Of a DNA stretch of 64,000 bases, positions 13,527 through 34,975 are shown piece after piece. The stretch covers positions 56,256-120,255 of the forward strand of contig CANSMW010000003.1 of the NCBI GenBank assembly GCA_947648215.1, in the 5' to 3' direction. Position 1 is the stretch's first letter. Each line of letters opens with the position of its first letter. A program made the position numbers and the translations under genes. Origin of the DNA: an uncultured Clostridium sp. (GTDB taxonomy: Bacteria > Bacillota > Clostridia > TANB77 > CAG-508). The notes under the pieces are model-generated. The model saw only the letters and a list, made by a program, of their open reading frames with translations. It was not told the DNA's origin and searched no databases.

Positions 13527-14606
13527 TTATCTACCTTCATCAGCTTTTTCTTTTGCTTTTGATTTCTTTTCTTGTAAAGTAGGCTTTATTTGTTTACGAT
13601 ATTCTTTTAATGGTATTCCATAAATGTATTCAAAGCATTCTGCATCTGTCATTCGATAAGTATGATAACCATCTGCAAGCTTAGTAGTTAGTGCAAAACG
13701 AGGAATTTTACTTAAAGAATTATTCGATAATGTATGTTCGTTTGGTTTGTATCCATATTCTCTTTCCATATTATTAAAACGTTCCATATCATAGGTTCTT
13801 ATTTGGCATTCAAGCCCTAAACCTTGTTCTTCTGAATAAAAAGAACATTGTAAAGAAGCATATCCAGAAGGTTTTGGACGAGCAATATAATCTTTTCTTT
13901 TTTTTGTTTCAAAACCTTGACTTTCATAAAAGCTTTCAATATCTTTTTGAAAATCATTACAATATGGTACTAAATCTTCTTTTGATGATTTTTTGTAAGT
14001 GGTAGCGGTACTTAAAGGCAAATAAATATCTTTCCCATTTCTATTAGCACAAATATATGGAGTATTGTTATCAATCCATACATTACGAGCATTTTCTTGA
14101 ACAGAGATATTAAGTTTCTTACTTTCAAAAGGAATCTGGAAGCAATCGCCATCAATGATACGAAATTCATCTGGACCAGAATCAATATAAATTCCTTCAC
14201 TATCGATACTTATTTTATTAATTGGATAATTAAGGGATAATAAAAAAACTTTAATTGCATAATCATCCATTATTTCAACTGCTTGAAAATCGTCTTTTTG
14301 AAATAAGTCAATAAATTTTCGGATTACTTTTTCATAATGCGAAAAAGGAGACTTAAATCTACCAGCTATACCAAAATCTAAATGGGGATACTTTTCATAT
14401 AAAAAACCATATAAATCTGTTTGTAACTGAATAAAATCATCTAATGAAGATTCGTGTATATTATATTGTAACTGATAATCATTAGGGTCAATAATTAAAT
14501 TGGAAAGTCTCGTTAATGTAGCACACTTTCTTTCAAATTGCTTAAAAATTGGTTCATCATCATTCCATTTCATTAATCTATTTTTTACTTTTTCATCAAT
14601 TAGCAT
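13527..14606 (-). CDS. RelA/SpoT-domain nucleotidyltransferase (alarmone-synthetase-like) with atypical insertions
   Basis: Synthetase motifs GRFKSPFSHYEKVIRK, DDYAIKV, DYIARPKPSGYASLQ and ECQIRTYDMERFNNMEREYGYK align to RelQ/RelP, but a ~85-aa insertion separates the second and third motifs and there are N/C extensions; start set at second ATG with agaggtg RBS. Confidence 0.55.
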   Translation of the reverse strand: MLIDEKVKNRLMKWNDDEPIFKQFERKCATLTRLSNLIIDPNDYQLQYNIHESSLDDFIQLQTDLYGFLYEKYPHLDFGIAGRFKSPFSHYEKVIRKFIDLFQKDDFQAVEIMDDYAIKVFLLSLNYPINKISIDSEGIYIDSGPDEFRIIDGDCFQIPFESKKLNISVQENARNVWIDNNTPYICANRNGKDIYLPLSTATTYKKSSKEDLVPYCNDFQKDIESFYESQGFETKKRKDYIARPKPSGYASLQCSFYSEEQGLGLECQIRTYDMERFNNMEREYGYKPNEHTLSNNSLSKIPRFALTTKLADGYHTYRMTDAECFEYIYGIPLKEYRKQIKPTLQEKKSKAKEKADEGR

Positions 14607-14697
14607 AATATCACCTCTTTTACTCATACCTCCATTATATCATATATCCACATAAAAAGCTAGCAATGCAGGATTCTGCATTGCTAGCGTAAGTTTA

Positions 14698-15285
14698 TTA
14701 AAACAAATTCAAATATCGAATACTAGATAATACCGTATCAACAGCAAGAAGAACAAAGGCGATGTTAATAACGATAATTTGTACATGAGCAGGTATTTTC
14801 TTTATAACTTTTTTCACAATCTTTTCAATAAATGGATGGACAAAATGGATGAAAATAAGAGCAATAATCCCCCACGCAAAAGAGAAGAAGAGACTAATTC
14901 GTCCATTTAGGTTCATAAAATCATTTGTGTAATCCCACCAACGGTCGGCAAATAAGGCATCTAATGCAAAACCTGCTACATATTCAAAAACAGAAAATAC
15001 AATTACAGAGTAGAAAAACAGTTTTAATGGTTTTGACTTATATTTTCTCAAAATACTAATTAATATAATGGCTCCCCAACCATAAATAGGGCAAAGAGGT
15101 CCATACAAAAATCCTCTTTTTACAAAATGCCCCAAGGTTTCAAATGCATACACAGTTTCTAATAACCAACCAATAATAGCATAAATCAAAAAGTATAATA
15201 AAAGATAACGTATGCTCACTAAATAAGTATCTTTTTTATCAATTTTCTCCATTAAAAAATCCTCCATAAAATATAGGTAAATCAT
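14698..15285 (-). CDS. integral membrane protein (putative ABC-transporter type IV / CmpB-like)
   Basis: 195 aa, 5-6 TM, GWLLETVYAFE...YGPLCPIYGWGA motif; hairpin terminator 14660-14692. Confidence 0.45.
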   Translation of the reverse strand: MIYLYFMEDFLMEKIDKKDTYLVSIRYLLLYFLIYAIIGWLLETVYAFETLGHFVKRGFLYGPLCPIYGWGAIILISILRKYKSKPLKLFFYSVIVFSVFEYVAGFALDALFADRWWDYTNDFMNLNGRISLFFSFAWGIIALIFIHFVHPFIEKIVKKVIKKIPAHVQIIVINIAFVLLAVDTVLSSIRYLNLF

Positions 15286-15387
15286 ATCAAATTTGTAGAG
15301 GATTGTAAATTATTTTTCAAAAAAAACTTGAAAACGTGGTTAAAATATGCTATGATGAATATACTAAAGGAGATACAGAAATGTATT

Positions 15388-15505
15388 AAAAGCGGTTTTC
15401 CTGTATCCAGTTAAAAACAGTTATATAAAGTGGTTTTCCTGTATCCAATCAAAAACAGTCATATAAAGCGGTTTTCCTGTATCCGGTTAAAAACAGTTGT
15501 AAAAC
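15388..15505 (+). ncRNA. ToxI-like antitoxin RNA: 3 tandem 38-39-nt direct repeats
   Basis: aaagcggttttcctgtatccagttaaaaacagttatat x3 (periods 38, 39); sigma-A-like promoter ttgaaa-17-tatgat at ~15337-15365; followed by terminator and toxN-like ORF. Confidence 0.6.
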
Positions 15506-15508
15506 AAG

Positions 15509-15547
15509 TGGGAGGTTATATAAAAAACTTCCTACTTTATTTTTTTG
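15509..15547 (+). terminator. rho-independent terminator between repeat array and toxin gene
   Basis: ggaggtt-loop-aacttcc stem then tttatttttttgg. Confidence 0.5.
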
Positions 15548-15563
15548 GAAAGGAGGAATAGGT

Positions 15564-16079
15564 ATGAAACAAACTTTAAAATGGTACATTGTAGACAAAG
15601 AATATGTAAAATATTTAAGAAAGGCAGATAATCGAGTTCAATATAGTGAATATAATGATAAATTAAAACCATATATTGGTATTATTATTACAATTCATGA
15701 TTTCGACTATTATGTTCCAATCTCTTCTGTGGGAAATAAAATAAAGAAACTTGAAAAGTATTCAAAAATGAAAGATGATATTGATATTATTAAAATTTAC
15801 GATAATAATAAAAAGCTATTATCTGTTTTAAATTTAAACAATATGATACCAGTAAGACCAGAGAATGCAAGAATATTAAAATATAGTGAAATTGATAATT
15901 ATAGACAATTTTATAATTTGACAGATAAAAGGAAGTATATTTATTTTCTACAAATTGAATTAGCAATTTTAAGAAAAAACGCTAATATTATTTCATATAA
16001 AGCAACTAAGTTATACGATGAAAAAATAAAAACAAATTCTCAAAAATTTCCAAAAGAACATGTGATTTTAAATTATTAG
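15564..16079 (+). CDS. ToxN/AbiQ-family type III toxin (endoribonuclease)
   Basis: 171 aa; KWYIVDKEYVKYLRKAD...YYVPISS...NMIPV pattern shared with ToxN/AbiQ; paralogous to 34257-34778; RBS aaaggagg. Confidence 0.65.
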   Translation: MKQTLKWYIVDKEYVKYLRKADNRVQYSEYNDKLKPYIGIIITIHDFDYYVPISSVGNKIKKLEKYSKMKDDIDIIKIYDNNKKLLSVLNLNNMIPVRPENARILKYSEIDNYRQFYNLTDKRKYIYFLQIELAILRKNANIISYKATKLYDEKIKTNSQKFPKEHVILNY

Positions 16080-16194
16080 AAGAAAAGTGCATGGAATATA
16101 ATAAGCACTAGAAAATTTATAGAAACTTTCTTCCAAATGGTACATAAACATGATATAATAGTGTCGAAATATGAAGTAAAAGAGGTAGAGATAT

Positions 16195-17424
16195 ATGAAA
16201 AAGCCAGAATTATTAGCTCCAGCAGGATCTTTTGCAAAAGCAAAAATTGCATTTTTATATGGAGCAGATGCGGTATATGCAGGTACATCTTCTTTATCGT
16301 TACGAAGTCGTGCGGAAATGAGAGATGATGATTTAGCAAATACCATTCGTTATGCCCATAGCATAGGGAAAAAAGTATATGTTGCGATTAATATTTATGC
16401 TTGGGATACGATGTATGAGGAAATCCGTAAACAGGCTAGAATGTTAAATGAACTAAAGGCAGATGGCATTATTGTAGCAGATGGGGGAGTTGTCGATGTT
16501 GTAAAACAGGAGGCTCCTGATATTGATATTCATATTAGCACACAAGCTAATGTAGTAAGTGCTCATAGTGCTAACTTTTGGTATAAAAATGGGGCAAAGC
16601 GTGTTATTTTAGCACGTGAATTGCATGGGGAACAAATTCGAGAAATTATTAATCATACTCCCATACCATTAGAAACCGAAATCTTTGTTCATGGAGCAAT
16701 TTGTTTTGGTTATTCAGGACGATGTTTTTTAAGTGATTTTTTGGCTTCTAGGAGTGCTAATTTAGGGGACTGTGCTCAAAGTTGTAGATGGGCATATAAT
16801 GTGTATGCTGAAGAAGTAAATAATCCGGGAAATCTAATGCCAGTGGAGCATGATGAAAAAGGAACTTATATTTTTTCTTCAAAAGATTTATGCTTAGTAA
16901 AGGAACTACCAGAAATTATAGAAATGGGAGTAGATAGCTTAAAAATTGAGGGAAGATTAAAAACGGAATACTATTTGGCATCGGTTATTAATACTTATCG
17001 TAATGCAATTGATGATTATATAAAGGCTCCAGAAACTTATGATGGTAGCAAATATGTAAAAGAACTTGAAAAAGTAAAAACAAGAGGTTTAACGACTTTT
17101 TATTTTAATGATAGAAACAATAAAGATTTTCAAGAATATGAAGGTAAACAATATAATCCAGACTATGAATTTGGTGGTAAAATTATTTCGTATCATTCAG
17201 AAAAAACAGTCATGGAGGTAAAAAACCGCTTAAAAATAGGAGATACGTTAGAAATTCTAATTCCAAACCAATTAGAGTCGTACTGTTTTACGATTGACCA
17301 GTTATGGGATTCCGAAACAGATGAGAAAGTCGAATTTGTTAACCCAGGAAAAGCAGGACAAACCGTAAAAATTCACGTGCCAATTCCTGTTAAAAAAGAC
17401 TGGATTTTAAGGCGAAAAAAGTAG
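16195..17424 (+). CDS. peptidase U32 family protein
   Basis: 409 aa; N-terminal ELLAPAGS...A...GADAVY U32 signature. Confidence 0.85.
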   Translation: MKKPELLAPAGSFAKAKIAFLYGADAVYAGTSSLSLRSRAEMRDDDLANTIRYAHSIGKKVYVAINIYAWDTMYEEIRKQARMLNELKADGIIVADGGVVDVVKQEAPDIDIHISTQANVVSAHSANFWYKNGAKRVILARELHGEQIREIINHTPIPLETEIFVHGAICFGYSGRCFLSDFLASRSANLGDCAQSCRWAYNVYAEEVNNPGNLMPVEHDEKGTYIFSSKDLCLVKELPEIIEMGVDSLKIEGRLKTEYYLASVINTYRNAIDDYIKAPETYDGSKYVKELEKVKTRGLTTFYFNDRNNKDFQEYEGKQYNPDYEFGGKIISYHSEKTVMEVKNRLKIGDTLEILIPNQLESYCFTIDQLWDSETDEKVEFVNPGKAGQTVKIHVPIPVKKDWILRRKK

Positions 17425-34256: not shown

Positions 34257-34778
34257 TTATTTCCCCTTATTCCATTCCTTTAATTTTTCTTCTAATAATT
34301 TAAAATTAACTGTATTTTTTATATAGCCTATGTCCATATTCTTAATTTTCTGATTATAAACTGTTTTTGCATATTTTATAATCCTATTACTATTGTTATT
34401 GATATATCTTAACTCTCCAAGTATTACTTCCTTATATTTTAAATCAGTTTCATTTGATACCATATATGGTTCTAGTTCTGTTATAGGAACAGGTATCATA
34501 TTACTTATTCTTAAAGTCCCATATAAACGATTACCTTCATAAATTCTTATTATCGTTTTAGTATCTTTTCTAATAATCTTTTTATTAATATCAATATAAT
34601 CTGAATTTTTAGGCGAAGACATTGGAATATAATAATTGAATTCGTTTACAGTTAAAACAACGCCTAAATATTTTCTTTCATGAGTCCTTATTTCTTCTTT
34701 ATTGTCATAAATTTTATCATCAAATTGTCTTAAATAGTTTATGTATTTATCACTTACACTATATAAATTTAACTTCAT
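34257..34778 (-). CDS. ToxN-family type III toxin
   Basis: 173 aa; SDKYINYLRQFDDKI...KYLGVVLTVNEFNYYIPMSSPK...NMIPV...NFKLLEEK closely follows ToxN/AbiQ; RBS aaaggagagg. Confidence 0.75.
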   Translation of the reverse strand: MKLNLYSVSDKYINYLRQFDDKIYDNKEEIRTHERKYLGVVLTVNEFNYYIPMSSPKNSDYIDINKKIIRKDTKTIIRIYEGNRLYGTLRISNMIPVPITELEPYMVSNETDLKYKEVILGELRYINNNSNRIIKYAKTVYNQKIKNMDIGYIKNTVNFKLLEEKLKEWNKGK

Positions 34779-34794
34779 TTGCCTCTCCTTTTAC

Positions 34795-34833
34795 AAAAAT
34801 AAGAGAAGGCTATCACTTAAGATACCTTCTCTT
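34795..34833 (-). terminator. terminator between ToxI repeats and toxN
   Basis: perfect 9-bp stem aagagaagg-15nt-ccttctctt followed on minus strand by attttt. Confidence 0.6.
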
Positions 34834-34840
34834 GATTTTA

Positions 34841-34975
34841 ACTTTCTCATTTTAAAGGCTGTGAAACACCCGATTTATAACTTCCTCAATTAAAGGTTGT
34901 GAAACACCCGATTTATAACTTTCTCATTTTTAAATGGTAGTGAAACACCACGATTTTCTTATATTTATTATACTA
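34841..34975 (-). ncRNA. ToxI-like antitoxin RNA: ~3.5 tandem 38-41-nt repeats
   Basis: (plus-strand view) ggctgtgaaacacccgatttataacttcctcaattaaa / ggttgtgaaacacccgatttataactttctcatttttaaat / ggtagtgaaacaccacgatttt; minus-strand promoter ttgaca-18-tataat at ~34985-35020. Confidence 0.6.

Follow-up and report, generated by a model that had tools for sequence, protein, structure and literature searches.

A toxIN-family type III toxin-antitoxin cassette with an apparently intact RNA antitoxin and a frameshifted, probably defective toxin gene in an uncultured gut Clostridium

The DNA considered here is a stretch of 64,000 nucleotides (nt) from an uncultured gut Clostridium (NCBI GenBank assembly GCA_947648215.1, contig CANSMW010000003.1, positions 56,256 to 120,255 of the forward strand), which we call the window and number from its first letter. 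It carries a locus that, as far as family and architecture are concerned, is almost certainly a chromosomal type III toxin-antitoxin cassette of the toxIN (ToxN/AbiQ) family. For this particular copy we consider a further statement probable, namely that the cassette combines an intact RNA antitoxin with a toxin crippled by a frameshift, one A being missing from a homopolymer within the toxin gene. Related loci are designated below by L numbers and homologous proteins by P numbers; 8 related loci, with toxins 33-99% identical, came from a genome collection and 80, with toxins 41-56% identical, from a metagenome collection.

Organization of the locus

The elements follow one another in the order promoter, three 38-nt repeats, terminator hairpin with its T-run, ribosome-binding site and an open reading frame (ORF) of 171 amino acids (aa). 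They are listed here with the two features that define the frameshift:

15328 to 15356, + strand: promoter-like site, with -35 TTGAAA at 15328-15333, a 17-nt spacer and an extended -10 TGcTATGAT at 15348-15356
15372 to 15387, + strand: leader hairpin GAUACA-GAAA-UGUAUU, of 6 base pairs (bp) with a GAAA loop, ending 1 nt before repeat 1
15389 to 15426, + strand: ToxI-like repeat 1, 38 nt (tandem-repeat searches and covariation count)
15427 to 15464, + strand: ToxI-like repeat 2, 38 nt (same evidence)
15465 to 15502, + strand: ToxI-like repeat 3, 38 nt, with a diverged 3' tail UUGUAA and the final UAAAA junction at 15500-15504
15506 to 15547, + strand: intrinsic-terminator-like hairpin and T-run, separating the repeat array from the toxin gene
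15551 to 15556, + strand: ribosome-binding site (AGGAGG), separated from the ATG by 7 nt, seen in the sequence itself
15564 to 16079, + strand: toxin gene of the toxN/abiQ family, frameshift allele, 171 aa, residues 1-154 native and 155-171 out of frame
16021 to 16026, + strand: A6 homopolymer, site of a 1-nt deletion, where intact alleles have A7 (nucleotide alignment with L001-L007)
16022 to 16111, + strand: displaced C-terminal coding remnant, reading KNKNKFSKISKRTCDFKLLEEKCMEYNKH in the -1 frame and then a stop at 16109-16111

The means published for the toxIN family are a repeat of 38.1 nt, 2.8 copies and a toxin of 168 aa, with ranges of 31-62 nt and 1.9-5.6 copies (Blower et al., 2012; PMC3401426), and the values found here (38 nt, 2.9 copies, a toxin of 171 aa or, when complete, 182 aa) match those means. 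The array ends 65 nt upstream of the toxin ATG. Leaving aside the equivalent of the catalytic K55, which is ambiguous (see below), all the features by which Blower et al. (2012) recognize toxIN loci and that can be checked in a sequence were found, with the sole exception of toxin completeness in the window allele, an exception that applies to the present copy and not to the type of locus.

The promoter-like site gave 10 of 12 matches in a consensus scan, plus the upstream TG, and its position is kept in the near-identical loci L001-L010; transcription would start at about 15363. The terminator hairpin proper (15506-15537) has 12 bp and an 8-nt loop and is followed by TATTTTTTTG. Its folding energy is -14.9 kcal/mol (z = -4.15), no other element is stable in the centroid fold computed for the leader as a whole, and an equivalent hairpin is present in every related locus inspected. 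This layout extends to relatives with toxins 33-84% identical: the upstream regions inspected have a promoter and a short leader, then repeats of 35-38 nt in 2-5 copies, and a GC-rich hairpin with a T-run ahead of toxN.

The sequence-only reading of this stretch had described a canonical toxIN architecture, and in this it was right: promoter, repeats, terminator and ToxN homologue are all present, and the repeat is of a kind that can form a pseudoknot. The ttgaaa-17-tatgat promoter and the hairpin with T-run that it named were both recovered, at the positions given above. Its three near-identical direct repeats also stand, with the correction that the period is exactly 38 nt, so that the unit of 38-39 nt and the span 15388-15505 that it gave were slightly loose.

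The repeats and their folding

Tandem Repeats Finder reported a single array at 15389-15498 (period 38, 2.9 copies, 87% matches), and a direct-repeat search placed the starts of the copies at 15389, 15427 and 15465, at an exact spacing of 38 nt and with 90-93% identity to the reference copy. A pattern made of the 27-nt core occurs three times in the 64-kilobase window, always within the array, against 0.00 occurrences expected from 100 shuffles.

All units share a 5' AAAG-N-GG, and their CC and A-run are both invariant. What lies between GG and CC covaries with what follows the A-run (CUGU/ACAG in the window; elsewhere CCAU/AUGG, UCAU/AUGA, CUAU/AUAG, ACUCU/AGAGU, UCUCA/UGAGA, CUUGU/ACAAG, GGCUGU/ACAGCC and GAUUGU/ACAAUC), and some of these compensatory changes occur between repeats within one array. 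Since the 5' strand of this second stem sits between the GG and the CC of the first, the two stems interleave, which gives an H-type pseudoknot. The comparison of sequences thus supports a fold in which each repeat would form stem 1 by (N)GG/CC(N) and stem 2 by CUGU/ACAG; in repeat 1, G15394-G15395 would pair with C15407-C15408 and CUGU at 15401-15404 with ACAG at 15417-15420. The loops of this model, of 5, 2 and 7-8 nt, fit the published ToxI template of two interleaved 3-4-bp stems with a medium loop between strands 1a and 2a, a short one between 2a and 1b and a longer one between 1b and 2b (PMC3401426).

To evaluate the model, 38 units taken from 16 loci were aligned, with N as padding. In this alignment, 85.6% of the proposed pairs were standard, a figure inflated by the manual registration of the units on the structure under evaluation, as compared with 27-53% when the 3' partners were slid by 1-3 columns, and in none of 500 shuffles was the score for pairing or for covariation as high as the one observed. 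Pairing amounted to 98% in stem 2, five of whose six pairs show changes on both sides, and the core G-C pairs of stem 1 are swapped to A-U in the distant loci L012, L013 and L015.

Other treatments of the same repeats were discarded. The nested minimum-free-energy fold of repeat 1 was only 57% paired on the alignment, much as its controls were; ViennaRNA gave nested folds for the single repeats that were weak and differed from repeat to repeat; and an alignment of the units made with MAFFT was out of structural register for the shorter ones and was replaced by the hand-registered one. A search of viral contigs for copies of the repeat, such as a phage-borne mimic would carry, gave no match.

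The toxin and its fold

The window ORF matched the Pfam profile ToxN_toxin (PF13958) with E = 4.2e-36 and a score of 125 bits, the cut-off being 25 bits, and the PADLOC model AbiQ with 1.3e-23, and by its sequence alone it found the solved toxins 4ato, 4glk, 2xd0 and 7d8o. A profile built from 40 homologues aligned with these four structures from end to end (E = 4e-27 to 1e-21). A structure model was made for P0002, the closest intact relative, 96% identical to the window ORF over residues 1-154. This AlphaFold2 model has a predicted local distance difference test (pLDDT) value of 87.6 and a predicted template modelling score of 0.85, and shows the twisted beta core with surrounding helices that characterizes the ToxN fold. 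The first four matches of the model in the PDB according to Foldseek were the ToxN proteins of Bacillus thuringiensis (ToxN_Bt), Pectobacterium atrosepticum (ToxN_Pa) and Escherichia coli (ToxN_Ec) and the AbiQ protein of Lactococcus lactis, ToxN_Bt ranking first, all with probability 1.0 and template modelling scores (TM-scores) of 0.70-0.82; MazF was only a distant match. Sequence, profile and fold matches together make membership of the ToxN/AbiQ family secure.

Assignment to the cptIN family found no comparable backing. CptN (4rmo) was only the fifth fold match (TM-score 0.49/0.57, 14% identity), no sequence-level match to it was obtained with either the window ORF or the 40-homologue profile, and the 38-nt repeat falls outside the 40-48 nt of cptIN repeats (PMC3401426).

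The active-site residues of ToxN_Pa are K33, T52, S53 and K55 (PMC8860590), and K35, S54 and S55 of the window toxin align with residues of this set. The column of K55 is occupied by G57 in the clade of the window toxin and is followed by an insertion of seven residues, and K59 aligns with the Lys of the TSRNDK segment of ToxN_Bt; because of this insertion the equivalent of the catalytic K55 is ambiguous.

The frameshift in the toxin gene

The match of the window ORF to the Pfam profile stops at position 142 of 159, having begun at position 1, whereas the intact allele P0002 covers positions 1-159 with 151 bits; the toxins of the nearest relatives are 182 aa long, against 171 aa in the window. 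Translation of the three forward frames located the conserved C-terminus NKNKFSKISKRTCDFKLLEEKCMEYNKH in the -1 frame, and the displaced remnant is identical to the C-termini of P0002 and P0121, the latter being an intact protein, found on 13 contigs, whose residues 1-154 are identical to those of the window. The frameshift comes after K154 and replaces the 28 residues with which the complete toxin of 182 aa ends. The sequence-only reading had taken the ORF at its face value of 171 aa; its assignment to ToxN/AbiQ was borne out, the homology and the fold match on which it had made its own refutation depend being both strong, and what it missed is that the native toxin has 182 aa and that the window holds a frameshift allele. 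Its interpretation as a whole is therefore partly supported, being right in family and architecture.

A difference of one base in a homopolymer could in principle be an error of sequencing or assembly, in which case the genome would truly have A7 and an intact 182-aa toxin, and public assemblies of such loci do include one (that of L096, GCA_018263615) that is riddled with indels of this kind. We consider this explanation quite improbable. The window shares the A6 run with three Logan assemblies from different SRA runs (L001-L003), and four other contigs (L004-L007) have A7; the genes neighbouring the cassette are intact in L001-L003, and so are those flanking it in the window, which encode a 409-aa U32 peptidase and a 366-aa RelA_SpoT protein. 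Over the 820 nt of the locus, the window differs from the A7 contigs at two positions apart from the indel and, given that the displaced frame is otherwise unchanged, the deletion is recent.

What the toxin loses can be defined with some precision. Within the missing segment lie nine columns that are invariant or nearly so in an alignment of 40 sequences (S160, K164, R165, C167, F169, L172, E173, K175 and Y179), together with the end of helix 140-156 and helices 161-165 and 169-178, modelled at pLDDT 91-95. The near-invariant RTCDFKLLEEKC motif goes with them. This motif is present in all four solved ToxN/AbiQ structures: in the form C-x-F-x-x-L-E-x-K it aligns in ToxN_Bt, ToxN_Pa and AbiQ, and the match of ToxN_Ec spans the same profile positions. 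Essentially all the full-length homologues retrieved have kept it. With two helices of confident prediction and the RTCDFKLLEEKC motif gone, the toxin is most likely inactive or destabilized. Judging from the sequence, we therefore favour the view that the 171-aa product has lost its function or retains it in severely weakened form, and that the locus is most likely a toxin-defective copy with an RNA antitoxin that is, by the same kind of evidence, intact.

The alternative with the best claim, which we nonetheless find rather unlikely, is that the system is fully active, the 171-aa product keeping endoribonuclease activity and binding of ToxI and possibly serving in abortive infection. Residues 1-154 are those of the intact P0121 and comprise all the predicted strands, the region of K35, S54 and S55 and most of helix 140-156; the A6 allele persists in at least four assemblies, and promoter, repeats and terminator are untouched. 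Against this stand the nine conserved columns and the two helices that are gone, and the fact that the lost C-x-F-x-x-L-E-x-K motif has been kept from the ToxN of Pectobacterium to the AbiQ of Lactococcus.

Another way to save the toxin would be slippage on the A-run, in replication, in transcription or as a -1 shift of the ribosome at AAA-A, which would restore the full-length protein in a subpopulation of cells or in a small part of the products and make the toxin regulated or phase-variable. A -1 shift after codon K154 does recreate the sequence of P0121 exactly, and A6 and A7 alleles both circulate on near-identical backgrounds. The run itself is not kept in the next relatives, however, L009 having GAAAAGTC at that place; just two run lengths were seen; the zero frame lacks the X XXY YYZ heptamer that is generally regarded as canonical; and six A residues are short for efficient slippage. 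This mechanism appears to us very improbable indeed.

Returning to the toxin-defective cassette that we prefer, several points weigh against it. Some concern the RNA: in addition to the hand registration of the units mentioned above, stem 1 is invariant among close relatives and draws its support from distant loci only, the promoter and the terminator are known only as consensus matches, and no Rfam family was found for the repeats in a scan of 15200-16200 with E values up to 10, whose three matches, to one ctRNA and two snoRNA models, were at chance level, none coming near its gathering score. Others concern the toxin: the predicted beta core and the aligned K35, S54 and S55 all lie within the retained residues 1-154, and Blower et al. 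(2012) considered it unclear whether naturally shortened type III toxins stay toxic (PMC3401426).

A second lesion was observed in L097 (SRR25391111), which has the A7 run in an otherwise near-identical locus and an independent deletion of 11 bp in toxN, equivalent to window positions 15905-15915. This suggests that the toxin has been lost repeatedly in the species with the repeats staying intact. A C-terminal frameshift in L096/P0137 was discarded as a further case of decay, given that its assembly is full of indels and has the U32 peptidase gene split.

Proposed mode of action

What the analysis shows directly is the anatomy of the locus, its homology, the fold of the intact allele, the covariation of the pseudoknot and the frameshift with its recurrence in other assemblies. 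From the elements described we infer how the cassette would work, including its transcription, the processing of the RNA, the cleavage site, the stoichiometry, the loss of toxicity and any role in phage defence. A single promoter would drive a short hairpin leader and the three 38-nt repeats. Most transcripts would end at the terminator, which sets the ratio of RNA to toxin in toxIN (PMC3401426), so that repeat RNA would be made in excess over the toxin message, and those reading through would carry the toxin gene. Where the system is intact, 38-nt units would be released by the ToxN-type endoribonuclease, whose cuts in the precursor would fall in the A-rich linker between pseudoknots. The four junctions of the window array all carry UAAA (UUAAAAG, AUAUAAAG twice, and GUAAAAC) and, as ToxI_Bt and antiQ have their A-run 5' of stem 1, we would place the cut within UA|AAG, a position that does not fix the exact bond. 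In each unit the A-rich loop 3 would probably dock in stem 1, and units and toxin would assemble into a closed ring of RNA and protein, like those of the solved complexes, in which the toxin would be bound and inhibited. If the supply of RNA were lost, for instance upon phage infection, the toxin would be set free.

An abortive-infection defence against phages, as had been suggested from the sequence, would by analogy be a reasonable guess for the intact copies. It may not apply to the copy in the window, for which it is doubtful, because the toxin there is a frameshift allele. Activity against phages has been reported for ToxIN_Pa and AbiQ, and ToxIN of B. thuringiensis was without such activity in its native host (PMC5086642).

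Leader, genomic context and related loci

The leader hairpin folds with -4.1 kcal/mol (z = -6.2). Equivalents of it were seen in L012, L017-L019, L026 and L028, where the position is kept and the sequence differs, and it seems plausible to us that it protects or stabilizes the 5' end of the antitoxin precursor. Overlapping with this hairpin, the segment 15367-15389 contains an AAGGAG and, 9 nt further on, a mini-ORF of two codons (ATG-TAT-TAA), which is probably there by chance; its Shine-Dalgarno-like part is degenerate in L010.

The cassette is flanked by a gene for a membrane protein of the CmpB family and by that of the U32 peptidase. For the CmpB-family gene, initiation at 15252, which would give 184 aa and has a GGAGG ribosome-binding site, looks more likely than initiation at 15285, which would give 195 aa. 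A promoter-like TTTACA-17-TATGAT with TG on the - strand (15281-15309) faces this gene and points away from the toxIN promoter, so that the 310-nt intergenic region has two promoter-like sites placed back to back and divergent. Two genes away from the cassette, at 13527-14627 on the - strand, lies the gene of the 366-aa protein with a RelA_SpoT domain (Pfam 6e-12, and a weak match to PADLOC PDC-S33). The same slot in L010 (1123-2094) holds a different RelA/SpoT-like protein, of 323 aa, and this position is thus a variable slot that might encode toxins of the alarmone-synthetase type or defence genes.

The window contains a second toxIN-type locus at 34257-34956 on the - strand, with 3.1 copies of a 38-nt repeat at 34834-34956, a terminator and an intact toxin of 173 aa whose match to the Pfam profile is complete (E = 4.9e-39) and which matches PADLOC AbiQ with 3e-43. 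The toxins of the two loci are 35% identical and their repeat units are unrelated in sequence, which agrees with the earlier view of them as independent systems. The repeat of the second locus may also fold differently, as a GG-GUG-UUU-CAC-AA-CC hairpin instead of a pseudoknot.

Tandem Repeats Finder detected no arrays in many of the loci whose toxins are 42-43% identical to that of the window. In three of them (L033, L062 and L037), two or three diverged repeats could be recognized by eye, with compensating changes in stem 2 such as GAGCGU/AUGCUC versus GAUUGU/ACAAUC; divergence brings these repeats below the threshold of the program, and so their arrays were missed. The remaining loci of this identity among L030-L095 probably carry similar diverged repeats. 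In L016, whose own array belongs to the repeat class of the window, a solitary ToxI unit of a different type, CAGGTGAACCCTACCAATAAGTGGGAG, which resembles the class of L011 and L013, was observed some 40-85 nt upstream of the array. The 52 nt upstream of the promoter are different in L008, at the end of its contig, and on account of that position were not read as a boundary of the cassette.

Significance

The cassette is an uncharacterized addition to a well-known kind of system and leaves the understanding of the toxIN family unchanged. It adds to that family a subgroup from gut Clostridium with clear natural covariation for the ToxI pseudoknot, and it reveals that intact and freshly disrupted toxin alleles, with deletions of 1 nt and 11 nt, coexist in one species with the RNA antitoxin unchanged. 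Such a natural pair of alleles is suited to two questions, i.e. the need for the C-terminal segment of ToxN and the decay of chromosomal type III systems. Annotators should label the gene a frameshifted toxN, not a functional toxin of 171 aa. That the A6 allele amounts to more than decay, either as an orphan, strongly expressed ToxI array serving as an anti-addiction RNA or as a toxin made phase-variable by A6 and A7, is speculative and in our opinion improbable. If it were so, an orphan ToxI RNA could guard against the cognate toxin arriving with mobile elements or made by sibling alleles, and slippage between A6 and A7 could allow a population to turn on and off a suicide defence that is costly.

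Comparison with known systems

The closest relatives, with toxins 78-84% identical, are named 'type III toxin-antitoxin system ToxN/AbiQ family toxin' by NCBI (e.g. MCI8999585.1). Two of their loci, L009 and L010, occupy the same genomic slot and have the same repeats as the window locus; the proteins in this identity range are intact and of 182 aa, in contrast to the A6 frameshift allele of the window. Further away, the toxIN loci of Clostridium botulinum plasmids and of phage D-1873, with toxins 35% identical, were part of the 2012 survey (PMC3401426).

Among the systems of known structure, ToxIN of B. thuringiensis pAW63 (4ATO) gave the best match, with a profile E value of 4e-27 and TM-scores of 0.77/0.82. 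Its promoter, about 2.9 repeats, terminator and toxin are arranged as in the window. Its ToxI, which is experimentally characterized and was read here from the plasmid record, with GGU/ACC and a covarying 4-bp stem 2 (ACUC/GAGU or GCCU/AGGC), has the same order of stems and an A-rich linker directly 5' of stem 1, as in the window repeats. The active-site region TSRNDK of ToxN_Bt resembles the SSVGNK of the window toxin. The differences are that the two toxins are 28% identical and ToxN_Bt is intact, that its repeat is of 34 nt instead of 38, with a loop 3 of 5 nt instead of 7-8 and a sequence unlike that of the window outside the G-C core, and that it is plasmid-borne, whereas the window locus is chromosomal.

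AbiQ/antiQ of L. lactis pSRQ900 (4GLK) belongs to the same Pfam and PADLOC family and has the same fold. The antiQ array, likewise experimentally characterized and read here from its plasmid record, comprises 2.8 repeats of 35 nt and has a GG/CC stem 1 and a UCCAA/UUGGA stem 2 in the same order, and cleavage takes place in the A-run of the linker, at A/AAA (PMC5086642). The comparison of the 38-nt unit with ToxI and antiQ that had been recommended in the sequence-only reading came out in favour of a common pseudoknot stem order. AbiQ is about 30% identical to the window toxin, the sequence of the antiQ repeat is different, and AbiQ is a proven abortive-infection system, whereas the window locus is known from its sequence.

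The founding members of the family, ToxIN of P. atrosepticum and that of E. coli (2XD0/2XDB/2XDD, 7D8O), have the fold in common with the window toxin (TM-score 0.70-0.78), and their toxins share the C-terminal TCNFSLLEEK motif. In ToxI of E. coli, conserved adenines make contact with two G-C pairs of stem 1 that are likewise conserved (PMC8860590), and the invariant GG/CC and AAA of the window repeats are consistent with a similar arrangement. These systems differ from the window locus in the sequence of the toxin (24% identity), in having 5.5 copies of a 36-nt repeat, in their cleavage motif, AA/AU or GAA/AU, and in being plasmid-borne and of Gram-negative hosts.

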